Source of the DNA: Candidatus Magasanikiibacteriota bacterium
GTDB lineage: Bacteria > Patescibacteriota > Patescibacteriia > Magasanikbacterales > GWA2-37-8
DNA length: 64,000 bases
NCBI GenBank assembly: GCA_009694865.1
Contig: SICD01000001.1
Location: 403-64,402 of the forward strand
Reading direction: 5' to 3'
The notes below the pieces were generated by a model that was not told the origin of the DNA, made no database searches, and was given only the letters and a program-made list of their open reading frames with translations. Positions 17,464 through 30,657 of the stretch are shown here, piece by piece; the stretch's first letter is position 1; every line of letters begins with the position of its first letter. The translations under genes were made by a program, and so were the position numbers.

Positions 17464-17598
17464 ATCAGCGCGCCCTTCACCGCCTGCCCCCTCCACACGG
17501 GTCCAACCCCCGTGGAGCGAAAACACAGATCGCTCGTGCTCTCGCTTTATTGGTACAAACAGTTGTATTAATAAAGCGCGAGCGATCTGAAATTTAAA

Positions 17599-17632
17599 AC
17601 ATCCTGACGCTATCCGTCGGGATGTTTTTTTG
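17599..17632 (+). terminator. Rho-independent terminator of cassette A
   Basis: acatcctgacg-ctatc-cgtcgggatgt followed by ttttttt. Two further GC-rich hairpins lie upstream (17491-17517 and 17528-17587). Confidence 0.55.
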
Positions 17633-17679: not shown

Positions 17680-19401
17680 CTACAGTTCATCTTCAATAAC
17701 ATCTATCTCCTCTTCAATTTTCTTTTCAATACCACGAATCTGCGCCCGCAGATCGCGTAGAACCTTTTCTTCGGCCGCGCTTAATTTTCGCTCGGCCATG
17801 GCCTGTTCCAAATGTTTAATATCCTGCCGCATTTGTTCGGCTAAATCACCTAATGATTCGTGCACCGTGTTGCGTATCAGTACAGCCTCTTTACGCAACA
17901 ACCGGTTGGTATAAAAACCCCGATACGAGAAAAAAAGAATAATGGCAAAAAGCACAAGAATAACCGCCACCAAAATTATAATAATATAGTTATAGGCGCT
18001 TATGGATTCCAAGAGGGGCACCGGGTGAACGGTAAATGTTTCTACGGCGCTTCGCTCGCTCACATTGCCGCTGGTGTCAATGGCCTGGACCCAAAACGCA
18101 TAGGTACCCCGACGTAACTTTTTAGGCCACGCCAGAGAAAAATATCCGGCATTGTTGCTTTTGGTCTCGGCCATGGAAATTATTCCTTTGCTGTCTTTAA
18201 CCGATACCACGGCGGTGGCAAAGGGGTACGAACTACCCTGGACTTGAAATAAGTCGCCCTCGTCTAAATCGGCCGGAAAATTTGAAACCAGGGGCATGGC
18301 CAGCGGATTAATAACCACTTCTGCATTAGCTTCGCGAAAATTACCGGCATTATCTACGGCCCGCACGAGCACCGCGTATTTCCCTGGCTCACGAGGCGGC
18401 AATACAAAAGGGTTAGATTCCACCACCTCGGCCGGAACTACCTTTAAATAGGGGGAATCGCCAATTTTAACCTCATAATACGCGATACCAGAAATTTTAT
18501 CGGGTGTATTAAACAAAACAACCGGCCGCTGATCGGGAGTCACGTCGCCATGAGGGAATGTGACCGCAAACGGTTCAGGCGGTTCGTTGTCAATTTGCAG
18601 ACGGTAGACAACTACTTTTCCCCAGCCAAGGGCAGTGCGCGCCTGCAGTTGAAAATACCAAACACCATTGGCCAAATCAGGGATAGTTTTAGAGCGAACC
18701 GAAACTGGCACGGCCTGGCTAGGCAGAGCGCCTACCTCCCGACTTATTCCCCACCGAGTCGCGCTCGTGAGGGGCGGCAGGGTCCAGTTAAAGACAGCGG
18801 TTGACGTGGCATACCAGCCTGTCGAATCTGGATGGGTAAGAGAACTAATACGCGGGAGAGTTGGGTCGTCGCTCAACGATTTTGACAAGCTGCTAGACCC
18901 CTGAATAACATACTGCGCTGATTCGGTTTTGGCTTGTACATTGGTGCCGTTACCATCGTTCGCTAGTACCAGGGCGGAAACAAACGACACCTGCGCCACC
19001 CCTGAAGAAAGCGCGCGGAAGCGAATAGTGGCCAAAGTTCCTCCCGACCCGCTAAACCCCGGATTTTTAATAATGCCCTCTAGGCCAATGGTGCTCTGGT
19101 TACGGATAATAACAGGCTCGCGTACCCAAAAATCAATAATTGAATTACTAGTGGAAACAGACAGGGCTTCGAGAGTGGTTGCGGAATAACGCAAAATCGC
19201 CTGCACCGCGTTTATGGGGTCATCGCTCCCGGCCTCAAGGGTAACGGTAAAAATATCGCCAGCCGAAATAGGGGCGCGCGGACCAACAAAAAACAAGCGA
19301 GCCGGTTTATCCGTTGCCGTTGCACTAGAGGCAAGTGCGGCTCCGATAACGGATGAGAGCATCGCCACCCCGATAATTATTTTTTTAAATAAATCCCCCA
19401 T
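17680..19401 (-). CDS. Surface protein (573 aa) with a signal peptide, an N-terminal cohesin-like domain, FN3/Ig-like repeats, and a C-terminal TM anchor plus cytoplasmic coiled-coil tail
   Basis: The cohesin-like pattern is ARLFFVGPRAPISAGDIFTVTLEAGSDDPINAVQAILRYSATTLEAL...GGTLATIRFRALSSGVAQVSF. The FN3-like pattern YYEV...VRAVDNAGN occurs three times. The TM segment is YIIIILVAVILVLFAIILFF, followed by a charged helical tail. Confidence 0.65.
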   Translation of the reverse strand: MGDLFKKIIIGVAMLSSVIGAALASSATATDKPARLFFVGPRAPISAGDIFTVTLEAGSDDPINAVQAILRYSATTLEALSVSTSNSIIDFWVREPVIIRNQSTIGLEGIIKNPGFSGSGGTLATIRFRALSSGVAQVSFVSALVLANDGNGTNVQAKTESAQYVIQGSSSLSKSLSDDPTLPRISSLTHPDSTGWYATSTAVFNWTLPPLTSATRWGISREVGALPSQAVPVSVRSKTIPDLANGVWYFQLQARTALGWGKVVVYRLQIDNEPPEPFAVTFPHGDVTPDQRPVVLFNTPDKISGIAYYEVKIGDSPYLKVVPAEVVESNPFVLPPREPGKYAVLVRAVDNAGNFREANAEVVINPLAMPLVSNFPADLDEGDLFQVQGSSYPFATAVVSVKDSKGIISMAETKSNNAGYFSLAWPKKLRRGTYAFWVQAIDTSGNVSERSAVETFTVHPVPLLESISAYNYIIIILVAVILVLFAIILFFSYRGFYTNRLLRKEAVLIRNTVHESLGDLAEQMRQDIKHLEQAMAERKLSAAEEKVLRDLRAQIRGIEKKIEEEIDVIEDEL

Positions 19402-19407
19402 GTTATT

Positions 19408-20328
19408 TTATTTTTTTATGCGTCGGCGTATACCAAAAACGAACAGAAGCGCAACGCCACTTACTACTAGTATACTCCAAATTCGTACAGAATAAAATGG
19501 TGATAAATTAACTGACGGAGGCAATGTCACCATAGCGCGATTCCCAGCACTGTCGACTGCCCGAACCGCCACAAAATGACGCGCCAATTGATCGCGCAAT
19601 ATATAAGGGCTGGTGGCGCGCTTCCAGGCGCCCGGCTTCGCATCACTCTCTCGAGTTTCCGCCACTTCATAATACTCAACTCCTGACTGCGTATCTCGCC
19701 CCATAAATACTACGGTTTTGACCCCCCCTGCCACCATAGGGTGCTCGGCGCGTTCTGCTACCAGAGAGGGCGGCGTGGTATCAGAAACGCGAAGCAAAGC
19801 CGCGGGGGCCACTCCTTGAGATTCAATAATATTAACGGTTAACGGTACAACCGTTACTGGCAACACAGTTGCTTTACCATCATGAGAGAGGAGGCTCACT
19901 TTAGACAAGGAAAATGTTACCGAGCCGGGCTCTCTAGCTTCAAAATCCACGCTAAACATTTTACCCGGTTCTGGTTCTTTGGCATACGGACTAAACACAC
20001 CTTGAAAACCGCCAGGAATAATTCCGGAAAAAACCACTCCCCGTTTTTGAATAACAGGGGCAGTAACCCACCAAGTAATAATTGAATTAGCGCCCGAAGT
20101 AGCGCGCGGAACTACCCGATCCGTATCGGCTTCCAGCGTTCCCTCTAAGGCATTAATCACCACCTCGTCCGGCTTAAGTTCGGCCGACACGGTAAAGGTA
20201 CTGCCCACCGGAACCGACCGTGCGGGACCAATTAAATTAATAGTGGCGGCCTTAGCAACACCGCCCATTGCTAAAGCAATAAATCCAAGGGCAATACTAA
20301 AACCCAAACGCAAAATAAAAAATTTCAT
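19408..20328 (-). CDS. Surface protein (306 aa) with a signal peptide, a cohesin-like domain, an FN3-like domain and a C-terminal TM anchor
   Basis: ATINLIGPARSVPVGSTFTVSAELKPDEVVINALEGTLEAD...SIITWWVTAPV... aligns by eye with the N-domain of the 573-aa protein. C-terminal anchor IWSILVVSGVALLFVFGIRRRIKK. Confidence 0.6.
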   Translation of the reverse strand: MKFFILRLGFSIALGFIALAMGGVAKAATINLIGPARSVPVGSTFTVSAELKPDEVVINALEGTLEADTDRVVPRATSGANSIITWWVTAPVIQKRGVVFSGIIPGGFQGVFSPYAKEPEPGKMFSVDFEAREPGSVTFSLSKVSLLSHDGKATVLPVTVVPLTVNIIESQGVAPAALLRVSDTTPPSLVAERAEHPMVAGGVKTVVFMGRDTQSGVEYYEVAETRESDAKPGAWKRATSPYILRDQLARHFVAVRAVDSAGNRAMVTLPPSVNLSPFYSVRIWSILVVSGVALLFVFGIRRRIKK

Positions 20329-20338
20329 AATGCCTCAA

Positions 20339-21253
20339 TTAGCCCGTCCAATAAAACGCCATAATACTAAAATCTTTTAAATCAATCTGTCCGTCATTAT
20401 TTAAATCAAACTGCGCCGGTGCCCCGGGTTTTGCATACCAAAAAGCAATCATGGAAAAATCTACCAAATTAACACGCTGGTCTGCGTTAAAATCTCCGAG
20501 TAGTGTCTGCGTACCCGCCGGGTTAAAGGTCGTTGTATCCCCGAGCAATACCGTTTCGGGGCGACTGGCCGGGGTTTCCTTATCCCCCACTATAACCGAG
20601 GCCTCTAACGTATAGGTTCCGCGCAAGAACGGTTTTGTGTTAATAACCACCCGAAATAAACCGACGTTGTTAGAGCGCGTGGTAATAAGAGCCGAGGAAG
20701 GACCCTTTAAACGAATTGTCACCCGCGCGCCCGGCGAGGAGAGGCCGCTCACAATTAAATTATCGCCTTGCTTTACCGCGCTCTGGTCTGCCCACATCAC
20801 GGGCGTGGCAACAATACCGCTAACCGTGAGGGTGGTACGCTCGGCAACTAACAGTGGAATCAAAAAATTGCTGGAACGAAAACCGTTGGTATCAATGCTA
20901 TTAATAGTAAAGACGTGGTTGCCAATTGTAACCGCCGGTAAAACAATGGTAAATGCACCCTGCGCTGTGGTTGTGGCGCTGGTGGTGAGCACGCCATCAG
21001 TGAGAATTGTTATACGAGCTCCTGGGAACGACGTGCCGGCAAAACTCACGCTGGTAGGTGTGTTAAGTTCAGAAAAAGCCCCGCCCCCGCCAGATGTTTG
21101 CCCTGGAGAATTGGACTGTGTCCCCGGCAACACTACCGCGGTCACCGTTATGGTAGTTTCAGCCCCCTGTACCCTCTCCCCCGCCACCAACAAAAAAACA
21201 GCCAGCATTATTGCCAGGCCGACTGAATATAATTTTGAAACAGTGGTAATCAT
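20339..21253 (-). CDS. Secreted protein (304 aa) with two Ig-like domains and a C-terminal type-I-like dockerin module
   Basis: The C-terminus carries duplicated calcium-loop segments: GDFNADQRVNLVDFSMIAFWY and FDLNNDGQIDLKDFSIMAFYW (DxNxDxxVNxxD pattern, two copies). Confidence 0.7.
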   Translation of the reverse strand: MITTVSKLYSVGLAIMLAVFLLVAGERVQGAETTITVTAVVLPGTQSNSPGQTSGGGGAFSELNTPTSVSFAGTSFPGARITILTDGVLTTSATTTAQGAFTIVLPAVTIGNHVFTINSIDTNGFRSSNFLIPLLVAERTTLTVSGIVATPVMWADQSAVKQGDNLIVSGLSSPGARVTIRLKGPSSALITTRSNNVGLFRVVINTKPFLRGTYTLEASVIVGDKETPASRPETVLLGDTTTFNPAGTQTLLGDFNADQRVNLVDFSMIAFWYAKPGAPAQFDLNNDGQIDLKDFSIMAFYWTG

Positions 21254-21261
21254 GGGCCTTA

Positions 21262-22278
21262 CTAGTGGCGGGAATCACGCGCGCGAGCAATAATCCAGGC
21301 ATTATAACGCCGAATACCCACGCGGCCGCCGATCAATATCAAAGCTATAATTAGAACACAAAGAGTTAGCAGCTGCCACGGCACCAGTAGCACGCGCTGC
21401 GTAGCCATCATTTGCTCGACCGATTCCACCCCCCACTTTAAGTCGAGCTTGGCGGTGTACAACCCAAAAGCAAAATGATTCCATTGGTGTTTTACGGTTT
21501 GCCAATAACCAGCGGGCCGATTTAAATTGCCAGCAAATTCTTGAGGCCAAACGACCTCAAAACGCCGAATGCTCGCCGGTAAAACATTATTTTCTGCCGG
21601 GTTGGCGGAAAGCTCGGCCACCTTCTGGCCAAGCATAGAAGTAATTGTTATGGTTCCGGCAGGCTTTAGCCGATCACCCCCGCCGTTGCGCAAACGAAAC
21701 ACAAACGTCACTGGCACGCTATCAAACCAGCGCTGGTTATTAAGCGAAGTAAACTCAACTAGCCCAGCTTCCTCTTTGACATCGCCCGAAACACGAAGCA
21801 AAACCAGGGTGCCTATTTTGGCTCCCACGGCTAATTGCCCGCCTTGGCCCTGGCTTGGCGTTGTGCTCCAAAAAATTGCGGCAAAGTGGCCACCCGGTTC
21901 TGCCGACGCCGGAATGGTTATGGTAAAAGGAACTTTACGCTGCTCTCCCGGAGCCAGGGTTATCTCGCCAGACGTGTTCACCCATGTTGACAAGCCTTCG
22001 GTTCCAGCCACAAAATTGGGTACTCCACCTTCGCCTTGGGCCTCAAAATTTTCGGCCGAAGAATAAAAACGTTTGGACTCCTTTTGGTCATTCATGAGGA
22101 GGAGTTCGGAACTAATAACACTGCCCGGGTCCCCCGTTAACTCCAGTCGCGCCGGAGAAATGGTAAGGGCCTTCGCGCTCTTTGACCCTAAAAAAAAGCT
22201 CATCGCTATCAAAAAAAATATCGCGGAGCTCTTTGTTGCCGAACGGAAAAAAATATGAAACGTAAGAAACTTTTTCAT
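21262..22278 (-). CDS. C-terminally membrane-anchored surface protein (338 aa) with an N-terminal beta-rich domain resembling pilus-chaperone / DUF916-like domains
   Basis: Signal peptide, then ALTISPARLELTGDPGSVISSELLLMNDQKESKRFY. C-terminal TM LLTLCVLIIALILIGG followed by a basic tail RVGIRRYNAWIIARARDSRH. Confidence 0.55.
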   Translation of the reverse strand: MKKFLTFHIFFRSATKSSAIFFLIAMSFFLGSKSAKALTISPARLELTGDPGSVISSELLLMNDQKESKRFYSSAENFEAQGEGGVPNFVAGTEGLSTWVNTSGEITLAPGEQRKVPFTITIPASAEPGGHFAAIFWSTTPSQGQGGQLAVGAKIGTLVLLRVSGDVKEEAGLVEFTSLNNQRWFDSVPVTFVFRLRNGGGDRLKPAGTITITSMLGQKVAELSANPAENNVLPASIRRFEVVWPQEFAGNLNRPAGYWQTVKHQWNHFAFGLYTAKLDLKWGVESVEQMMATQRVLLVPWQLLTLCVLIIALILIGGRVGIRRYNAWIIARARDSRH

Positions 22279-22315: not shown

Positions 22316-23368
22316 CTAGAAGTTTGCGGTGGCAACGTAGGTTAACGTGGCTGTATAGCTACCCGCTTCGGTGTTAGCGCCGATATTAGCCAGATACCGC
22401 ACCGAGTAGGTGGTGTTGGCCGAAGCGCCCGCCGCCGATGCGACGGTACTTGCCGTGTTGCCCGTGGCGGCATAAGCAAACCCAGCGGCCGCATAGGGCG
22501 CGCTTACCGCACCGCTGCCGCCTGCCGCGTTACTACGCAAACCAAATTGTTCAGTGCCGGCGCTGGACGCGGTATTAACGTTACCAATGGCGCTAACCGT
22601 ATTAGCGCCGCTTGTTAGCGTGGCGCCTTTAACAGTAACGGTGTACCCGCTGTTTCCGTTGGTACTGGCAATTAAGGTATGCGCTTCGGCTTCCACGTCC
22701 GAGCCAGCACCAACGCCAGCATAGCGAGCCGCGGCCGAACTTAAAGTCCCAAAATCAATGGTGTTGGCCGAGATACTAAAAGACAAAGAGGGCGCGACCG
22801 TTGCCGAAATCGCCACTTGGTCGTTGGTGACAATCTGCACGCTCATGATTCCCGCATCACCAAACGTACCGCTAATAGTAATAGTATATGGCCCAGCGAC
22901 CGAGGGGTTAACGGCATTGGAGCTATCCAAAATCATAATGAGCTTATCGCTGGCCGCTACGGCCGCCGCGCCCACGCCATCCGTTGGCGCCGTTAAAGTT
23001 AATATACGATTTTGGACTCCGGAAAAAACCGCCCCCCAAGCAGTGGCGGAGGGGTTAGCGGCCAAGGTCTCGGTGTTCTCGGCCCCGGTATTGGCACCAT
23101 GGGTAAACGTCACAGTATTAATTGCTTTGCTCGACAAATTAAAATCTGAGGGAAATGTGACTATTATGGTATCAGTATTTTCATTGGCACCGGTTGGTGA
23201 AGTAAAAGTGAGGATGTGGCTCGAAGCGGTATTTACCTTAAGCGAGGACATGGTATCGCTTAAACCCATAAGCGCCGCCGCCTCCGCCCCGGAGTATGGC
23301 CACCCTACCCCAGCCATAATAACACTTATAACGAGAGTGGCGGAAACAATTATTTTGACTGTTCTCAT
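22316..23368 (-). CDS. Secreted protein (350 aa) whose C-terminal roughly 150-aa beta-domain is paralogous to the C-terminus of the next gene
   Basis: SLSFSISANTIDFGTLSSAAARYAGVGAGSDVEAEAHTLIASTNGNSGYTVTVKG...TEQFGLR...GSYTATLTYVATANF matches FLSFSISTSTAGFGLLYPHAARYATASGAGAATETEAHTLAIGSDGVLPYVITVQG...TNQFGLR...GEYQAALTYVVTATY. Confidence 0.6.
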   Translation of the reverse strand: MRTVKIIVSATLVISVIMAGVGWPYSGAEAAALMGLSDTMSSLKVNTASSHILTFTSPTGANENTDTIIVTFPSDFNLSSKAINTVTFTHGANTGAENTETLAANPSATAWGAVFSGVQNRILTLTAPTDGVGAAAVAASDKLIMILDSSNAVNPSVAGPYTITISGTFGDAGIMSVQIVTNDQVAISATVAPSLSFSISANTIDFGTLSSAAARYAGVGAGSDVEAEAHTLIASTNGNSGYTVTVKGATLTSGANTVSAIGNVNTASSAGTEQFGLRSNAAGGSGAVSAPYAAAGFAYAATGNTASTVASAAGASANTTYSVRYLANIGANTEAGSYTATLTYVATANF

Positions 23369-23466
23369 ATATTTAAAATTACTCCTTTTTTAGGATTTCT
23401 TTAGAGCCTATAGTATAACACAGTTTGCTCAAGTCTCGAACAAAGTTATACACATAATTAATTCGT

Positions 23467-25689
23467 CTAATAGGTAGCAGTAACCACATAGGTGAGGGCG
23501 GCTTGATATTCGCCCGTTGGTTTAGTGGGGGCAACATTGGCCACATACCGAACGGAAACAGTCGTTGGCGCTCCGACGAGCGTACTTCCCCCTACAATCA
23601 TACTCGTGCTCGTGCCGGTAGCGCCATACGCAAACCCAGCTCCCATATAAGGAGTAGTGATAATGTTTGAACCGTTGGAGATGACAATCCGTAGGCCAAA
23701 CTGGTTCGTACCAGGCATTGATGCTGTATTGACGGGGCCAATCGCATTAATAACTCCTATCACGGAACCAAGCGGATCGCCCTGTACCGTTATAACATAG
23801 GGCAAAACTCCGTCTGATCCAATGGCCAAGGTATGGGCTTCGGTTTCGGTAGCGGCTCCCGCGCCACTAGCCGTAGCATAACGCGCGGCGTGGGGATATA
23901 ACAAACCAAAACCGGCCGTGCTGGTTGAAATTGAAAAAGACAAAAATGTCGGCGGAGGTGGATTTGTCGCCGGAGTTATCCACCTCACACTCACCAGCGC
24001 AAAATCCCAATCCCGCGTCACCGGCGCCACCGCCGTAGAAGCCGACGTGCGCAAACGCAGAGCCGCCACATTGTTCACGGTATCAATAAAATTCTGCGGG
24101 TTAATTTGGAAGATGCCATCCGTAAACGTGAACGTGGTTAAAGCGTTGGTACCACCCACCGCGCTCCACCCCCCGGCAATGGTTTGGCCGGCAAATTGAC
24201 CGGAATAATCTTTAAGGCCAAGCTGAACGGTGTTGGCCGTGACATTGCTTCTAAAGCGAGCCGCGAAACGAATGCCGGTGACGGCCGCGCCAGCGGGAAC
24301 GGTAATCGGAACGGTCACATTGGCGCTCGCGCTGTAATTGGTTCCCCAGGTACCAGCCCCATCGGTTGGGTAGGGCGTGGTAGCGCAGGGGGCCGTGTTG
24401 TTTAAACAGGTTGTTTGGGTCCACGTGTTACCAACGGTGGCCGTGGTGAGAGCGGCTAAATCTGCTGTCGCCGCAGATGTACCGGACCCTAGTTGACCAA
24501 AAGATATTTCCGATTGGTTCGTATCGGTATTCACCGAGCCAACGGTAATATATATTTGATCGGTGCCCAGTGTTTGCGTGCCGCCCACGGTGCTAAAAAT
24601 AAGGATTCTCGTTTCTCCACTGGAGATATAATTAGCGAGCGTGACATTGGATTTGGCAAAAAAATTACTTTGGAGGGTATTAATCGCGGAAGCGACAATG
24701 GGAGCGGCGTTTAAATTTTCCCAACTGCTACTATTGAAATTCCAAATAGCCACATTGTACGTGAGGGCAAGGTTTGAAACAAAGCCGCCGTTGTACGCCA
24801 CGAGGATAGTGTTCGCGCCAGTGTAGGTTTGAATGTTTTTAAAAGAATAGTAAAAACTTAAAGGGTTGGCTACGGTGTTGGTAATGGTTTGGCGAGTAGC
24901 ATTGTTAGTAAACACCGAAAGGTAATCTCCATTTACGGCGCCGGCAAACGGGGCGATGGGGTTGTAGGAGTCGGGGTAATACACCGGGTCAATGGCCGCC
25001 TCAAGCTGTACTCTGTCAAGGTTGAATTGTACCAGCGAATTAACGGTGGAAAAAAATCTAATCCGCACGGTACTGTTCGAGACGAAGTTGGTGAGCGGGG
25101 TGGCGACTTTAACCCCGGGGTTGGTGCCCGTGTAAAAATATCCGTTAAAAATTTCAAAGGTGCGGCTGGTGTCAGCCGTTTCGGTAAAAGCGGTGGCTTT
25201 GGGGTTGTTCAGCGTGCGCCATCCCCCGCCCGTACACTGTGCGTCGGCGACATTGTCGACTCCGGTGGACGAAGCCCAATCACAAATTTGAATAAAGAAA
25301 TTGCGGGCCGTGGTAACATTCGCGGTCTCGGTTGTGAGGAGCAGTTTGTTAGCGCCATTGAGGCTGACGCCGCCGAGATCAACCTGGGCATTGAAGCCGG
25401 TGGGCGTGCCAACAAACGACCAGAACAGGTTGTCGGTGGCGAGGGTACCACGATATGACCCGACATTAGTGGCGGAATTGGCAGCAGGGGTGCCGAGGAC
25501 AAGGTTGCCGGCCGAGGGGGAGAAGAGGGAGGTGGCGGCCTGAACCGGGGTGACCAAAGAATTGTCCGGCCCCACATTTAAACCAATACCCACTAATAGC
25601 GGCACCGATGCGTTAGAAAAAACGATGACCGCGGTGAGCGCCCATACGGCCAGTACAATAAATTTTTTTCGTATCGCGCGCATATGCAA
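23467..25689 (-). CDS. Large secreted protein (740 aa) with a signal peptide, a long N-terminal region and the shared C-terminal beta-domain
   Basis: See the previous entry. N-terminal signal MHMRAIRKKFIVLAVWALTAVIVFSNA. Confidence 0.6.
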   Translation of the reverse strand: MHMRAIRKKFIVLAVWALTAVIVFSNASVPLLVGIGLNVGPDNSLVTPVQAATSLFSPSAGNLVLGTPAANSATNVGSYRGTLATDNLFWSFVGTPTGFNAQVDLGGVSLNGANKLLLTTETANVTTARNFFIQICDWASSTGVDNVADAQCTGGGWRTLNNPKATAFTETADTSRTFEIFNGYFYTGTNPGVKVATPLTNFVSNSTVRIRFFSTVNSLVQFNLDRVQLEAAIDPVYYPDSYNPIAPFAGAVNGDYLSVFTNNATRQTITNTVANPLSFYYSFKNIQTYTGANTILVAYNGGFVSNLALTYNVAIWNFNSSSWENLNAAPIVASAINTLQSNFFAKSNVTLANYISSGETRILIFSTVGGTQTLGTDQIYITVGSVNTDTNQSEISFGQLGSGTSAATADLAALTTATVGNTWTQTTCLNNTAPCATTPYPTDGAGTWGTNYSASANVTVPITVPAGAAVTGIRFAARFRSNVTANTVQLGLKDYSGQFAGQTIAGGWSAVGGTNALTTFTFTDGIFQINPQNFIDTVNNVAALRLRTSASTAVAPVTRDWDFALVSVRWITPATNPPPPTFLSFSISTSTAGFGLLYPHAARYATASGAGAATETEAHTLAIGSDGVLPYVITVQGDPLGSVIGVINAIGPVNTASMPGTNQFGLRIVISNGSNIITTPYMGAGFAYGATGTSTSMIVGGSTLVGAPTTVSVRYVANVAPTKPTGEYQAALTYVVTATY

Positions 25690-25692
25690 GTA

Positions 25693-27192
25693 CTATGGCG
25701 ATAGTGTTGTCGTAACTACTGTTATTATGGGCGATGAACTCGCCATAATTTCGCTAGTAGTGGTAGTAAACATATCACTCGTGCTCGTGGCCATAACCGA
25801 AAGTATTGTGGTATCTGGCGAAGACGAAACAACGATGGTAGGAACGGCGACCAGCGGCAAAGCCACTAAAGCCGCTACTGTGGTGGTGGCGTTAAGTGCG
25901 GCCACAACCTGCGAGTCCGGCAACTCATACTCTTCAGTGTCTCCGTTAAAAATAATCCATTGCCCGCCGCGCCAGTGCACTTTATAACTGCCCGATCCAA
26001 TCCAATCGGTTGGTTCGCTGTCAATAATAATAGTTTGTGAATTATACTCGCCGTCAGCGCGCCAGGCGGCAATCACCTCTGGCTCCGCTCGGCCCGAGAG
26101 CCAAAAAATAGTGTTGTCTTTCACCATTGGGGGGAGCGGCAAAAGCTCGGAGGTTTCAATTTTGTACGCGGGAGCCGTGGTGTTGCCCAACTCATCGGCT
26201 GGCGCGTACCACAAACTATACCCATCCGGGGTATGCGCCAAAGCAGTAGTAATACCCGGAGACACCACCACAATGCTAATTTCTTCGGCTTTGAGAAGCG
26301 GCTCTACAGCCTCCGGCACACTATCGGTTGGCGCGGCAATAAGCATCATCCCATCCACATACACCGGCGGCTCTGGCATAGCCCCCGGTACAAACTGGAG
26401 CATTATTTGCACCCGCCCCGGATCAATTGGTTCTGTAATGGGAATTTCAAAATCGCTCTCGGGGTGATCAATGTTAACGGTCGCGAGCGATTGCCAAGCC
26501 ACCCCATCGAGCGAGTATTGTATTAAGAACATCCCGGGTAAACTTTCGGGTACGAGTAGCGCAGTGGAGGCTTCCGCGGTTGAACTAACATTATCACTGG
26601 TGGATGTAACCACTAGGGGTAGTTCAAAAACACTACCAGTAGTAGAATTTGTCTCGGGGATAGTTTCCTCATCCAACGCCATACTCAATTCAAGAGTGGC
26701 GGGTTCCTCGGTCGTGGTGGTTGCGGCGGATGGCGTAATTTCATTAACCGTACTCACTAAAGATTCTTCAGAAACCAACGACCAGGCTAAATGCAAACGC
26801 AAACGCGAAACAAGTATTTGCTCCTCTGCCACACCCCGAAAATCCCCGCAATACAATTGCTGTACTCCTTCCGTGAACACAGCCGCGGTAGTAGTGGAAA
26901 ACAAATCTCGGGGTTCAGTAGTATCTAAAATATTTTGAGCGGCGTGCTGTGGATTTTGAACACTGCCCAAACAGGTGGTAGGGAAAAATACTATTTCTTG
27001 AGCTTGAGAAATAGAAAAAATAACCATTGTTAGCGCAATGCCAAAAAACACGGTGGTGGTTACCAAACCAAACGTCCGTATTTTTACATACGCCCACAGA
27101 CGCTCTGCGATAGTTGCGGACGTTGATAGTGCCCTGTGTCTACGACGCCACACCACAGCGCGAGTGCGTGCCTTCAATTTTTTCGCAGCCAT
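25693..27192 (-). CDS. Type II (N-terminally anchored) membrane protein, 499 aa, with a Thr/Ser-rich extracellular domain. It is the first gene of the surface locus.
   Basis: Basic cytoplasmic N-terminus MAAKKLKARTRAVVWRRRHR, a single TM LVTTTVFFGIALTMVIFSI, then a large ectodomain with T-rich stretches. Confidence 0.55.
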   Translation of the reverse strand: MAAKKLKARTRAVVWRRRHRALSTSATIAERLWAYVKIRTFGLVTTTVFFGIALTMVIFSISQAQEIVFFPTTCLGSVQNPQHAAQNILDTTEPRDLFSTTTAAVFTEGVQQLYCGDFRGVAEEQILVSRLRLHLAWSLVSEESLVSTVNEITPSAATTTTEEPATLELSMALDEETIPETNSTTGSVFELPLVVTSTSDNVSSTAEASTALLVPESLPGMFLIQYSLDGVAWQSLATVNIDHPESDFEIPITEPIDPGRVQIMLQFVPGAMPEPPVYVDGMMLIAAPTDSVPEAVEPLLKAEEISIVVVSPGITTALAHTPDGYSLWYAPADELGNTTAPAYKIETSELLPLPPMVKDNTIFWLSGRAEPEVIAAWRADGEYNSQTIIIDSEPTDWIGSGSYKVHWRGGQWIIFNGDTEEYELPDSQVVAALNATTTVAALVALPLVAVPTIVVSSSPDTTILSVMATSTSDMFTTTTSEIMASSSPIITVVTTTLSP

Positions 27193-27218: not shown

Positions 27219-28865
27219 TTATATCAAAGGCGTCCCCGTCATCTCTTTGGGCTGTGTAAGCCCCATAAGTTTTAAAACCGTCGGCGCGACATCCGCTAAA
27301 AATCCCACCGGCGGAAGCAAACTCAGATCCCCTTCCGGCGCGTCGCCACCTGGGCCGGCCTGACCGCGAAAATCAGCGCCGATGACGAGCAGGGGAACGG
27401 GATTGGTAGAGTGCTCTTTATCCATTTCACCAGTTTGCAAATTAATCACTTCTTCGGCATTGCCATGATCCGCTGTCATAATAACCACACCGCCAACCGC
27501 CAGTGTATGGCCTACAATATCGCCCAAACATTTATCAATGGTCTCACACGCGGCAATGGTGGCTTTGCGATCGCCGGTGTGGCCAACCATATCGGCATTG
27601 GCATAATTAATAACCACCAAATCAAACTTGCCGCTATCGATGGCTTTAATAGTTTTTTTTGTTACTTCGGACGCTGACATAGCTGGTACTTCGGCGTAAC
27701 TGGCCACATGCGGCGACGACACCAAAGCGCGCTCCTCGCCCGGAAAAGCTTCTTCAATTGTGCCATTCAAAAAAAATGTTACATGCGCGTATTTTTCCGT
27801 TTCCGCCGCGTGAAATTGCTTAAGACCGGCCAAACTAACGGCTTCAGCCAAACAATTACGCGCCACAATGGGCGCATAGGCCACTACCACCGGCAAATCT
27901 TTTTCATACTCCATCATGGTGACAAAAAATAACTTTTTTATGTCGCTGCGTTTAAATTTATCAAACCCGGGGAGTACAAAGGCTTTAGTGAGTTCGCGCG
28001 CGCGGTCGGGACGAAAATTAGCAAAAATAATAGCATCCCCATCAGTCACAGTCGCCACTGGCTTACCTGCCTCGCTCGCCTCGCTGGAGCTATGGCGAAG
28101 CGGGCCGGAGCCTTTGGCGGAGGCTGAATCACCATCCATAATCACGGTCGGCACAAATTCTTCATCATAATTTTTTTTCGCGTAGCTGGCTTTAATCGCC
28201 TCGGCGGGGCTAGTCGCGCTGCGTTCCGCTTTGCCTTCCGCCATTGCTTTGTAAGCCGCTTCAACTCGTTCCCAGCGGTTATCCCTATCCATGGCATAAA
28301 ACCGCCCCGAGAGCGAGGCGATCGCTCCAACTTTCAACTTTTTCAGCTTCGCTTCCAATTCTTTTACAAAACTTTCCCCGGCGCTATAAATACAGTCACG
28401 CCCATCTAAGATAACGTGGACAAAAACCTCTTTGCCTAAACCTTGCTTTTTACACAAATCCAAAAGTGCATAAAGGTGTTCATTGCTAGCGTGCACATTA
28501 CCGGAACTTAACATGGCAATAATATGGAGTTTGCTTTTATTCTTTTCCACGTGGGCAATCGCATCTAGAAAAGCCTTGTTCTTAAAAAATTCACCGCTCG
28601 ATATTTCTTGGTTAATGCGAGGACAGGATTGATAATAAACTCTACCCGCGCCAATATTAAGGTGCCCCACTTCCGAATTACCAATTTCACCAAATAAAAG
28701 ACCCACTTCGTTCCCCGAAGCGTGCAAGGTCATCGCCGGATACTCTTTAATATACGATTTAAAATTGGGCAACTTAGCCTGGGCAATAGCATTGCCATCG
28801 CTATCTGGCGCTACACCCCAACCGTCGCAGATGACAAGGGTAACTGGTTTGTAAGATTTACTCAT
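27219..28865 (-). CDS. gpmI: 2,3-bisphosphoglycerate-independent phosphoglycerate mutase (copy 1, 548 aa)
   Basis: iPGM motifs GNSEVGHLNIGAGRV and TADHGNAEE, with a metalloenzyme core. Confidence 0.85.
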   Translation of the reverse strand: MSKSYKPVTLVICDGWGVAPDSDGNAIAQAKLPNFKSYIKEYPAMTLHASGNEVGLLFGEIGNSEVGHLNIGAGRVYYQSCPRINQEISSGEFFKNKAFLDAIAHVEKNKSKLHIIAMLSSGNVHASNEHLYALLDLCKKQGLGKEVFVHVILDGRDCIYSAGESFVKELEAKLKKLKVGAIASLSGRFYAMDRDNRWERVEAAYKAMAEGKAERSATSPAEAIKASYAKKNYDEEFVPTVIMDGDSASAKGSGPLRHSSSEASEAGKPVATVTDGDAIIFANFRPDRARELTKAFVLPGFDKFKRSDIKKLFFVTMMEYEKDLPVVVAYAPIVARNCLAEAVSLAGLKQFHAAETEKYAHVTFFLNGTIEEAFPGEERALVSSPHVASYAEVPAMSASEVTKKTIKAIDSGKFDLVVINYANADMVGHTGDRKATIAACETIDKCLGDIVGHTLAVGGVVIMTADHGNAEEVINLQTGEMDKEHSTNPVPLLVIGADFRGQAGPGGDAPEGDLSLLPPVGFLADVAPTVLKLMGLTQPKEMTGTPLI

Positions 28866-29070: not shown

Positions 29071-30657
29071 TTACAGCAAGCTTCGTCCTGTCATTTCCTT
29101 CGGTTTCTTAATTCCCATTATTTTTAAAATCGTGGGAGACACGTCCGCCAGTTTGCCTTTTTTAAGGTTTCGAGATTTTAGCTTAAATTGTTTATGTACG
29201 GACGCAGGCGCTATAAACACAAATGGCACGGGATTTACCGAATGCTCCGTATCAACTTCGTCGGTCTTGAGGTTTACCATTTCTTCGGCATTACCATGAT
29301 CGGCGGTTATAACACATTGCCCTCCAGCCTTGAGGACACTCTGTGCCACGCGGTTAAGCTGTTTGTCAAGAATCGCAATCGCCTTTTCGGCGGCCGCAAT
29401 ATTCCCCGTGTGCCCCACCATGTCGGCATTGGCAAAATTAACCGCGATAAAATCATATTCCCGCGCTTCAATTGCTTTCACGGCGTAGGTGGCGATTTTA
29501 TCCGCTTCCATCGCCGGGTCAGTTTCAAAATCTTTCACGCGATCCGAAGCAATTTTTACCCACCGCTCATCGCCAAAATGCTGTTGGTAGCCGCCATTAA
29601 AAAAATAAGTGACGTGCGCGAACTTTTCTGATTCAGCGAGATATAATTGCCGGCGCGGACACAAAGTCTGTACCAAAGTATTAGGAATGTCACGACTCGG
29701 AAACGCTGTGAGTACACGCGGAAAATCCGGACCAAAATCCGCCATCGCCACAAACCGAGTATTTTTCGGCACAATTTTTCGATCAAACGTTCCGCCATTT
29801 TCCTTCTCAAACTGCGGATGCACAAACGCCTTCGTAATCTGCCGCGCCCGGTCACTGCGCAAATTAAAAAAGAAAATCGCGTCGTTACTTTTTATCGTCG
29901 CCACTGGTTTATTATTTTCAACAATCACCATGGGCGTAATAAACTCATCACTTTCACCAGAATTATACGCTTGCGTTAGTGCCTCTTCCGCGCTATTTGC
30001 CTGCTTACCTTTGCCTTCAACCATCGCCCGGTACGCCTTTTGTGTCCGGTGCCAAATTTTATTACGATCCATCCCGTATAACCGCCCCATCACCGTCGCA
30101 ATTTTCTCCGTGCCGTGAAAATGATTTTGTAAATGTTTAAGATGATGCGGCGCGTCGTGTTGACCAGAATCCCGCCCATCGGTAAATAAATGCAAATACA
30201 CTTTTTTAATTCCCTCCTGATGAATTAAACCCAAAAGCGCGAACAGGTGCTCCGGACAGGAATGCGCGCTGTTGTGATTCGAGAGCAATCCCATCAAATG
30301 CACCGCCGTTTTGTATTTTTTTACATGGTGCAGTGCTTCGTGAAACGCATTATTCTTAAAAAACGTACCGTCATTAATCGCATCGGTAATATACAGCGTA
30401 TCTTGTTTTACAACTCGCCCCGCCCCAATATTCAAATGCCCGGCTTCACTATTCCCCTCCTGCCCGCGCGGCAATCCGACGGCGACACCGCTCGCCTCAA
30501 GAAGAGTGTGGGGATATTTTTTCCACCAACCAAAAAAATTCGGCGCCGTTTTGGGCGTAATAGCGTTGCCCTTTTGTTTTGGGTCAGCCATGCCAAAGCC
30601 GTCGAGGATAATGAGGATGGTGATTGGTGATTTTGTAGGCATAATATTTCGTAACAA
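29071..30657 (-). CDS. gpmI: 2,3-bisphosphoglycerate-independent phosphoglycerate mutase (copy 2, a divergent paralog of 528 aa)
   Basis: GNSEAGHLNIGAGRV, ITADHGNAEE. Collinear with copy 1 but clearly diverged. Confidence 0.8.
   Translation of the reverse strand: MLRNIMPTKSPITILIILDGFGMADPKQKGNAITPKTAPNFFGWWKKYPHTLLEASGVAVGLPRGQEGNSEAGHLNIGAGRVVKQDTLYITDAINDGTFFKNNAFHEALHHVKKYKTAVHLMGLLSNHNSAHSCPEHLFALLGLIHQEGIKKVYLHLFTDGRDSGQHDAPHHLKHLQNHFHGTEKIATVMGRLYGMDRNKIWHRTQKAYRAMVEGKGKQANSAEEALTQAYNSGESDEFITPMVIVENNKPVATIKSNDAIFFFNLRSDRARQITKAFVHPQFEKENGGTFDRKIVPKNTRFVAMADFGPDFPRVLTAFPSRDIPNTLVQTLCPRRQLYLAESEKFAHVTYFFNGGYQQHFGDERWVKIASDRVKDFETDPAMEADKIATYAVKAIEAREYDFIAVNFANADMVGHTGNIAAAEKAIAILDKQLNRVAQSVLKAGGQCVITADHGNAEEMVNLKTDEVDTEHSVNPVPFVFIAPASVHKQFKLKSRNLKKGKLADVSPTILKIMGIKKPKEMTGRSLL

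Follow-up and report, generated by a model that had tools for sequence, protein, structure and literature searches.

The locus and its shared C-terminal domain

The DNA analysed here (the window) is a stretch of 64,000 nucleotides (nt) from a Candidatus Magasanikiibacteriota bacterium (assembly GCA_009694865.1, contig SICD01000001.1, positions 403 to 64,402 of the forward strand), and all coordinates below are counted from its first letter. Its minus strand carries an operon of six genes, encoding in the order of reading proteins of 740, 350, 338, 304, 306 and 573 amino acids (aa) and separated by gaps of 6-98 nt. The operon looks like a self-contained kit for a pilus, with neither usher nor sortase, and begins with two secreted proteins that share a C-terminal domain (CTD). 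The genes, with their open reading frames (ORFs), immunoglobulin (Ig)-like domains and transmembrane (TM) segments, are as follows:

23467..25689, minus strand: ORF of the 740-aa secreted protein EXS55_00110 (the GenBank start lies two codons later, giving 738 aa)
22316..23368, minus strand: ORF of the 350-aa secreted protein, the putative shaft (major) pilin
21262..22278, minus strand: 338-aa PapD-like/WxLIP-like chaperone with a signal peptide, two Ig-like domains and a C-terminal TM helix
20339..21253, minus strand: 304-aa protein with a signal peptide, a donor-like motif, a Gly-rich linker, Big_6 Ig domains and a C-terminal dockerin, and with no acceptor domain
19408..20328, minus strand: 306-aa protein whose signal peptide is followed by a cohesin-like N-terminal domain and, at the C-terminus, by a TM helix
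17680..19401, minus strand: 573-aa protein with a signal peptide, a cohesin-like domain, Ig-like domains, a TM helix and a cytoplasmic coiled-coil tail

The original prediction, made from the sequence of the 740-aa and 350-aa genes, was that two adjacent secreted proteins have a CTD in common, and this is borne out by the ORF coordinates, by the hydrophobic signal-peptide-like segment that can be read at the N-terminus of both translations, and by the alignment itself. Residues 195-350 of the 350-aa protein and 583-740 of the 740-aa protein are 47% identical with 2 gaps, and the similarity persists under proper alignment statistics (BLASTP with compositional adjustment, E=1e-31). All of the blocks that had been named (LSFSIS, FG.L, AARYA, EAHTL, GT.QFGLR, AGFAY.ATG and the terminal G.Y.A.LTYV.TA) lie inside this alignment. 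The similarity of the two domains is far beyond chance. The domain was delimited as:

23470..23943, minus strand: acceptor (C-terminal Pam pilin) domain of the 740-aa protein, residues 583-740 (BLASTP; CTD hidden Markov model (HMM), E=1e-48)
22319..22789, minus strand: acceptor (C-terminal Pam pilin) domain of the 350-aa protein, residues 194-350

The domain belongs to a family of 1913 clusters (50% identity, E<=1e-3), as found by profile among 1.84 billion representatives. The match ends no more than 5 residues from the C-terminus in 150 of the 150 hits listed, in proteins of 183-3243 aa.

The Pam pilus of Candidatus Mycosynbacter amalyticus was described in 2026 from this one Saccharimonadia species; electron cryomicroscopy (cryo-EM) of the filaments identified the pilins PamA and PamB, which assemble by donor-strand exchange, each subunit completing the C-terminal domain of the adjoining one with its linker strand (bioRxiv 10.64898/2026.03.03.709456). 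Alongside these pilins, the Pam operon carries genes for the PapD-like chaperones PamC and PamD, each with a C-terminal TM helix, for a single-domain tip without the linker (PamT) and for a donor-only membrane-anchored terminator (PamR) (bioRxiv 10.64898/2026.03.03.709456). The domain is covered by no Pfam model, neither in the two proteins nor in 63 aligned homologues. The NCBIfam model NF058581 (CPR_Pam_pilin_C, Pam pilus system pilin subunit) matches the 350-aa protein with 82 bits and its isolated domain with 86.5 bits, against a cutoff of 55, and both this model and the PamT model NF058579 match all 63 of the 63 aligned homologues. The latter is an equivalog model for single-domain proteins of ~240 aa that score at least 240 bits; it gave 41.7 bits for the 350-aa protein, over the C-terminal domain only, and no match in the 740-aa protein. 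The 740-aa protein is therefore not a PamT equivalog, though it may work in a tip-like manner.

For residues 185-350 of the 350-aa protein, AlphaFold2 (AF2) gives an all-beta model with a predicted local distance difference test (pLDDT) value of 97. The nearest solved structures found with Foldseek (E ~0.01-0.1) are CfaB, CsuA/B, the pilin domain of PapG and FimA/G, almost all of them from donor-strand filaments. The ~157-aa domain is very probably a Pam-type donor-strand pilin domain, predicted to be the incomplete Ig-like, strand-accepting CTD of pilins of the Candidate Phyla Radiation (CPR) with an open groove. The likeness to the beta-sandwich of donor-strand pilins, which the original prediction had seen in the first and last strands, thus holds at the level of fold and mechanism, on the evidence of NF058581, of the AF2 and Foldseek results and of the cryo-EM of the homologues PamA and PamB. 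Since these homologues polymerise by donor-strand exchange, the further suggestion that one module on different N-terminal loads marks the subunits of a polymer is also supported.

The operon is conserved. We searched 80 GTDB loci anchored on the chaperone gene with HMMs built in this analysis (81 sources enter the pattern counts). In 74 of the 80 loci the chaperone gene is immediately preceded, on its own strand, by one to four CTD genes; a 304-type gene follows it directly in 73/80, and homologues of the 306/573 pair are found in 68/80. The pattern (CTD)n-chaperone-304-306-573 occurs in 58 of 81 sources, with the 306-type gene between the 304- and 573-type genes in 67/81. The exact order of the window (CTD, CTD, chaperone, 304, 306, 573) is the commonest one (31/81) and is repeated without change in 30 of the 80 related loci.

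Donor motif, chaperone and the proposed assembly

The CTD genes fall into two classes. Those on the chaperone side encode proteins of 336-473 aa (336-451 aa in every case for the gene nearest to the chaperone), and the most distal ones encode proteins of highly variable length (243-2390 aa, median 568). All proximal proteins share a pre-domain segment, G(T/S)FGDTG...(T/A)DD(T/Q)-V-x-(V/I)-(S/T)-A-T-V-x-Q-S, which reads NDQVAISATVAPS in the 350-aa protein of the window; its second part, (T/A)-D-D-(T/Q)-V-x-(V/I)-(S/T)-A-T-V-x-Q-S, is the family consensus of the linker. The corresponding region of the 740-aa protein, WDFALVSVRWITPATNPPPPTF, is unrelated to it. Two features mark the difference:

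22790..22825, minus strand: linker with the donor-strand motif, NDQVAISATVAP, residues 182-193 of the 350-aa protein (core V185-V191)
23944..23979, minus strand: proline-rich junction ITPATNPPPPTF, residues 571-582 of the 740-aa protein, at the donor-linker position and without the V-x-V-S-A-T-V motif

The core V-x-[VI]-[ST]-A-x-V is present in 47 of 59 proximal pilins, the rest having near-variants such as VSMTGTV, and in 17 of 18 middle pilins. It is found in 2 of 59 distal CTD proteins (the motif is lacking in 57 of 59 loci) and in 14 of 939 background windows of 70 aa. A donor-strand-like N-terminal extension, for which the original prediction had proposed a check, is absent from both proteins of the window; the 350-aa protein has the interdomain linker instead, and the 740-aa protein has none.

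In the proposed mechanism, the acceptor groove of each subunit would be completed by a beta-strand donated from the next one (donor-strand exchange). The 350-aa protein, with its donor linker (NDQVAISATV) and its acceptor domain, would be able to polymerise head-to-tail and to form the shaft. The N-terminal domain of this protein is kept in 66 of 81 sources. The N-terminal domains of shaft pilins often give weak secondary matches to the CTD HMM (for example at L028 2609-3652, L036 6301-7398 and L040 7507-8658), and they may stem from an ancient duplication of the acceptor domain. In the case of the 740-aa protein, an acceptor domain preceded by a proline-rich junction in place of the donor strand would limit the protein to the distal end of the fibre, i.e., the tip, with its N-terminal module of ~510 aa as the likely adhesin. 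About 25 clusters are homologous to this module, all of the source-named ones from CPR bacteria. No Pfam domains were found in the full-length homologues of the module, and no sequence match to it in the PDB. The roles of tip and shaft are read from the sequence pattern and are to be taken as predicted.

The 338-aa protein belongs to a family of 817 matches at ~45-50% identity. Its AF2 model (pLDDT 88) starts with a signal/TM helix, continues with Ig-like domains at residues 43-163 and 171-298, and ends in a long TM helix. It has the features of Pam chaperones of the PamC/PamD type, namely a PapD/FimC-like fold, a signal peptide, a TM helix and a gene adjacent to those of the pilins. No NCBIfam model, that of the Pam chaperone included, matches the family, and a profile search of the PDB with the chaperone alignment gave nothing meaningful. 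A second, divergent chaperone-like gene (E ~1e-20) lies upstream of the pilin genes in L035 (5597-7543) and L077 (943-1992), which recalls the PamC/PamD pair. Another of the loci, L081 (5094-10051), is minimal. Its PamT equivalog (243 aa) has the C-terminal domain as well as SxNY repeats, and is accompanied by a chaperone from the 338-aa family and by an ~1100-aa ORF. This last ORF is Cys-rich, has TM segments near its C-terminus and a predicted mature N-terminus AIDVSVTANV with the donor motif; the gene calls of the source divide the stretch into genes of 326 and 478 aa. Lacking a shaft pilin, L081 may represent donor-strand coupling of just two proteins. The adjacency of a 338-type chaperone and a PamT equivalog in this locus ties the chaperone family to the Pam system.

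The chaperone also leads to a second protein family. PF06030 (WxLIP_PGBD, formerly DUF916) matches 31 of 46 members of the chaperone family, with a best E=8e-5 that stays below the gathering score (27.3 bits) and so outside formal WxLIP membership. A tblastn search against plasmids found a Clavibacter "DUF916 domain-containing protein" (E=1e-10), and hhalign of the chaperone family profile with this protein gave Prob 98.6% and E=1e-15 over 284 columns, the TM helix included. The actinobacterial DUF916 proteins score above the PF06030 cutoff, and upstream of each lies the gene of a small secreted protein; one of these small proteins matches Pfam WxL at E=3e-4. By these profile comparisons, the 338-aa chaperone and WxLIP are truly, if distantly, related. 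On plasmids of Clavibacter, Cellulosimicrobium and Arthrobacter (L083 7101-8915, L084 5046-6888 and L085 5190-7495, respectively), the small secreted WxL-like protein adjoins the DUF916 protein and has a V-x-V-x-V-like strand after its signal peptide; in L083 and L084 the pair adjoins GH43/LamG surface enzymes.

One loop of the chaperone resembles the donor motif:

21811..21840, minus strand: conserved chaperone loop GQLAVGAKIG, residues 147-156 (consensus G-Q-V-S-V-G-A-K-I-G)

Its columns are nearly invariant (V 42/46, V/I 46/46, G 45/46, A 41/46, K/R 46/46 and G 46/46), positions 0, 2, 4 and 6 agree with the donor motif, and in the AF2 monomer it has low confidence and no regular structure. 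For WxLIP, AlphaFold predicts that an equivalent hairpin becomes the strand completing the WxL sandwich (Hassan and Williamson, PMC9772566, PMC10599100); the signal-strapping paper PMC12537917, followed as a lead on the structure 9i1y, gives WxLIP no more than a brief citation. The loop is a candidate complementing strand that would mimic the donor motif, and the chaperone would use it to cap free acceptor grooves and hand the subunits over at the membrane.

The three remaining genes may provide the base of the fibre and its tether to the cell. Their relevant features are:

21125..21157, minus strand: mature N-terminus TTITVTAVVLP, residues 33-43 of the 304-aa protein, with the V/I-x-V-T/S-A-x-V core as in the pilin linker
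20360..20500, minus strand: type I dockerin, residues 252-298 of the 304-aa protein (PF00404, E=6e-6, above the gathering score)
18928-19263, minus strand: cohesin-like domain of the 573-aa protein, residues 47-158 (PF00963, E=1.2e-4)

The sequence of the 304-aa protein after the signal peptide is AETTITVTAVVLP, and the donor motif is found at the N-termini of 62 of 74 members of its family (median position 34), against the background rate given above. Big_6 (39.2 bits) and Dockerin_1 (26.8 bits, cutoff 22.9) are each found in 38 of 40 members. As the mature protein carries the donor motif at its N-terminus and lacks an acceptor domain, its addition would end growth, which would make it the base subunit. 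Its dockerin would then bind the cohesin-like domains of the 306-aa and 573-aa proteins, the putative membrane anchors, and tether the fibre to the cell. Cohesin PF00963 is found in 7 of 30 members of the 306-aa family (best E=3.2e-5) and in 13 of 30 of the 573-aa family (best E=1.4e-6), and the 573-aa protein of the window also matches Big_13 (35.8 bits). The C-terminal ~70 residues of this protein (17680-17900), after the TM helix, form a conserved, charged, coiled-coil-like cytoplasmic tail with the family consensus KRELTKEE..ILKKFKKRLE.TEKEIEKKLE. The tail could couple the anchor to an intracellular partner.

Competing explanations and flanking sequence

A CPR donor-strand (Pam-type) pilus operon is the probable explanation of the locus, and for the full assignment of tip, shaft, base and anchor the balance tips only slightly in favour. 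The identity and fold of the domain, the type and homology of the chaperone, the conservation of the operon and the three-way distribution of the donor motif are established here. Several points weigh against the pilus. All subunit roles, as well as the capping, the strand insertion and the cohesin-dockerin pairing, come from the grammar of the sequences, and the filaments are known from homologues. NF058581 gives 50.6 bits for the 740-aa protein (residues 613-740), just below its cutoff of 55. Cohesin PF00963 has no match in the 306-aa protein of the window, and its match in the 573-aa protein (22.7 bits) is below the cutoff of 24.1. The base of the published pam operon is the TM-anchored, RbmA-like PamR and not a dockerin protein, which leaves the anchoring step without experimental precedent. 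Finally, the donor motif is short, and, though it is ~50-fold enriched, another role in the 304-aa family could be conceived.

The strongest competitor, which we consider unlikely, is surface display of the WxL type with no polymer, in which the CTD would be an anchor module, each CTD protein would pair one-to-one with the 338-aa WxLIP-like protein or with the cell wall, and the 740-aa and 350-aa proteins would be two separate adhesins; such an arrangement has been proposed for the WxL clusters of Firmicutes. It draws on the homology of the 338-aa family to DUF916/WxLIP, on the same locus grammar in the WxL literature (a small and a large protein with a common C-terminal domain and a DUF916-DUF3324-TM protein), on the prediction in that literature that a WxLIP strand fills a gap in WxL, and on L081, where a PamT-like protein, a chaperone and one donor-motif protein occur without a shaft pilin. 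It is opposed by the close relatives PamA and PamB, which are filaments in cryo-EM, and by the donor strand, which is conserved in the 350-aa class and not in the distal class; simple one-to-one display gives no reason for a donor strand in one class alone. The subunit domains themselves do not support it either. A WxL domain (PF13731) would show two WxL motifs and a match to its HMM. At E<=1 no such match occurs among the 63 family members, and the domain contains no tryptophan-x-leucine pair. When the Pam CTD profile was compared by hhalign with four actinobacterial WxL-like small proteins, only the last strand was aligned, at a non-significant Prob of 1.6% (0.3% in a single-sequence run). 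A demonstrable homology between the Pam CTD and WxL was rejected on this result, and the claim was dropped.

Far less probable is a true SCPU/Csu archaic chaperone-usher pilin that came from Gram-negative bacteria by inheritance or transfer and follows the classical assembly route. The C-terminal strand pattern G-x-Y-x-x-x-L-T-Y-V presumably resembles the SCPU C-terminus, and here the likeness to SCPU/Csu pilins seen in the original prediction stands for the fold and the donor-strand mechanism. It fails for sequence membership: the two proteins and the 63 aligned homologues have no match at E<=1 to PF05229 (SCPU, spore coat U; Csu and CupE pilins), WxL, TasA or any other pilin family of Pfam. 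A TasA/camelysin assignment likewise finds no sequence match or strong fold match, and the profile search of PDB sequences with the domain alignment gave nothing meaningful. The comparison with SCPU, WxL and TasA proposed in the original prediction hence ends with membership in none of them. No usher was recognised in the operon or among the 80 related loci, the chaperone is membrane-anchored, and the donor strand is an internal linker and not an N-terminal extension; CPR bacteria are not known to have an outer membrane. Membership in SCPU and the chaperone-usher class was rejected on the missing HMM match, the missing usher and the internal position of the donor strand.

A chance or compositional likeness of two Ala/Thr/Ser/Gly-rich surface proteins with no common functional module, for which the abundance of these residues in both proteins and the long spurious ORFs on the opposite strand might speak, is refuted by the compositionally adjusted BLASTP statistics, by invariant positions common to the 1913 family clusters, by the high-confidence predicted fold and by the match to the curated model NF058581, and its probability is negligible. 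The ORFs opposite the pilus genes (189-218 aa; 20637-21293, 22758-23393 and 24889-25458, all on the plus strand) are most likely not genes but by-products of a coding composition rich in Ala, Thr, Gly and Ser.

Two pattern matches concern the expression of the operon:

17596..17628, no strand assigned: terminator-like 14-bp palindromic hairpin with flanking A and T runs, just after the 573-aa gene
23412..23439, minus strand: promoter-like site with a TG-extended -10 element, TATACT, in the 98-nt gap upstream of the 350-aa gene (consensus scan)

The hairpin is the likely terminator of the operon. The promoter-like site is followed by an AAGGAG ribosome-binding site ahead of the 350-aa gene, and the gene's own promoter-like site and this strong ribosome-binding site may drive expression of the predicted shaft.

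The genes around the operon are housekeeping ones (tRNA synthetases, two paralogues of cofactor-independent phosphoglycerate mutase (iPGM), enolase and PGK), with no ATP synthase genes among the ten flanking genes checked. A 499-aa protein (25693-27192, minus strand) with an N-terminal TM segment and Thr/Ser-rich stretches is encoded immediately upstream, its gene ending 3 nt before the 740-aa gene. As homologues occur in just 5 of 80 related loci, it was left out of the system; it was probably added in this lineage and does not belong to the core. The iPGM paralogues stand in tandem (27219-28865, 548 aa, and 29071-30657, 528 aa, both on the minus strand; phmmer E=1.8e-114), the first with a Ser/Ala-rich insertion; such redundancy is unusual in a reduced CPR genome. 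Many GTDB records with the CPR-type operon (L004, L007, L009, L012-L014, L060, L068, L077 and others) are titled as uncultured Gammaproteobacteria, Saccharibacteria, Polynucleobacter, Bacteroidia or Bdellovibrionales, and one homologue (P0013) is labelled Syntrophomonadaceae. These titles look unreliable, or the bins contaminated.

Significance and relation to known systems

A considerable part of bacterial diversity is thought to belong to CPR bacteria (Patescibacteria). The cultivated ones among them live attached to other cells, and beyond type IV pili little is known of their means of attachment. The domain itself has already been described (2026) and is curated in NCBIfam, and the locus is a variant of the known Pam system. 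Here the same pilin domain is found in lineages of the Parcubacteria group and of Gracilibacteria, in an operon that is compact and conserved. What is added is the putative cohesin-dockerin anchoring, the predicted modular tip without a donor strand, and the evolutionary link to WxLIP. Should the inferred parts hold, the operon would offer a testable minimal recipe for a pilus free of usher and sortase and a new use of cohesin-dockerin pairs, and the hypervariable tip modules (240-2390 aa) would be candidate determinants of host recognition. The homology of the chaperone and WxLIP offers a mechanistic hypothesis for the WxL surface proteins of enterococci, listeriae and lactobacilli. A wider reading, which we put forward only tentatively, is that the operon encodes a donor-strand pilus widespread in the Parcubacteria group, with a modular adhesin tip and a cohesin-dockerin tether, and that the Pam and WxL systems are branches of one ancient monoderm system of chaperone-assisted, usher-free strand complementation. 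If it is true, WxL proteins may likewise assemble by donor-strand exchange.

The closest system is the Pam pilus, with the pilins PamA/B/E, ATP synthase genes reported near pamA, and a distribution mainly in Saccharimonadia and Microgenomatia; the preprint names no Parcubacteria-group lineage and mentions neither WxL/DUF916 nor cohesin/dockerin (bioRxiv 10.64898/2026.03.03.709456). No other paper linking donor-strand assembly or cohesin-dockerin pairs to CPR pili was found in the literature. Both systems share the acceptor domain, a PapD-like chaperone with a C-terminal TM helix, and Sec export of all parts with no usher and no sortase. The 350-aa protein, with its conserved N-terminal domain and its linker motif, appears to be a two-domain pilin with the interdomain linker as donor, as in Pam, and the linker-less tip and the donor-only base with an N-terminal strand have their likely counterparts in the 740-aa and 304-aa proteins. 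The differences are that the window comes from Magasanikbacteria, of the Parcubacteria group; that it has one chaperone and one shaft pilin where Pam has two chaperones and three pilins; that its predicted tip bears a ~510-aa module and PamT is a bare single domain; that its putative base combines Big_6 and dockerin with separate cohesin-like TM anchors, in contrast to the TM-anchored, RbmA-like PamR; and that its neighbouring genes, as checked, include no ATP synthase and its chaperone is unmatched in NCBIfam.

The WxL clusters of Firmicutes and Actinobacteria consist of a small WxL protein, a large WxL protein and WxLIP (DUF916-DUF3324-TM) (Hassan and Williamson, PMC9772566, PMC10599100; PDB 9i1y). 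They resemble the window in their locus grammar, where the genes of a small and a large protein that share their C-terminal domain precede that of a protein anchored in the membrane and bearing two Ig-like domains, in the homologous chaperone, and in the loop that in WxLIP is predicted to fill a gap in the partner beta-sandwich. They differ in that the subunit domains have no detectable sequence homology, in that WxL is described as a peptidoglycan-binding display module whereas the Pam-type domain polymerises in homologues, and in that they often include an LPxTG protein, where the window operon has the putative cohesin-dockerin pair.

The environmental TLP-1a/b fibrils are built of a single-domain protomer with an N-terminal donor strand that enters protomer n-4 (CryoSeek, PNAS 2024, PMC11494351; PDB 9ikk). 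They form a tubular 8-nm fibril whose closest predicted relatives are in Flavobacteriales (PMC11494351). The sequence identity is 15%.

In the case of the chaperone-usher pili of Gram-negative bacteria (Pap/Fim, CFA/I and the archaic Csu/CupE, whose pilins have SCPU domains), the proposed assembly shares the logic of donor-strand exchange, the two-domain tip adhesin without a donor strand (FimH, PapG) and the terminator subunit (PapH). The window system differs in having no usher, no outer membrane and no Pfam membership, in its membrane-anchored chaperone, in the putative donor strand being an internal linker in place of an N-terminal extension, and in the extra N-terminal domain on the predicted shaft subunit.

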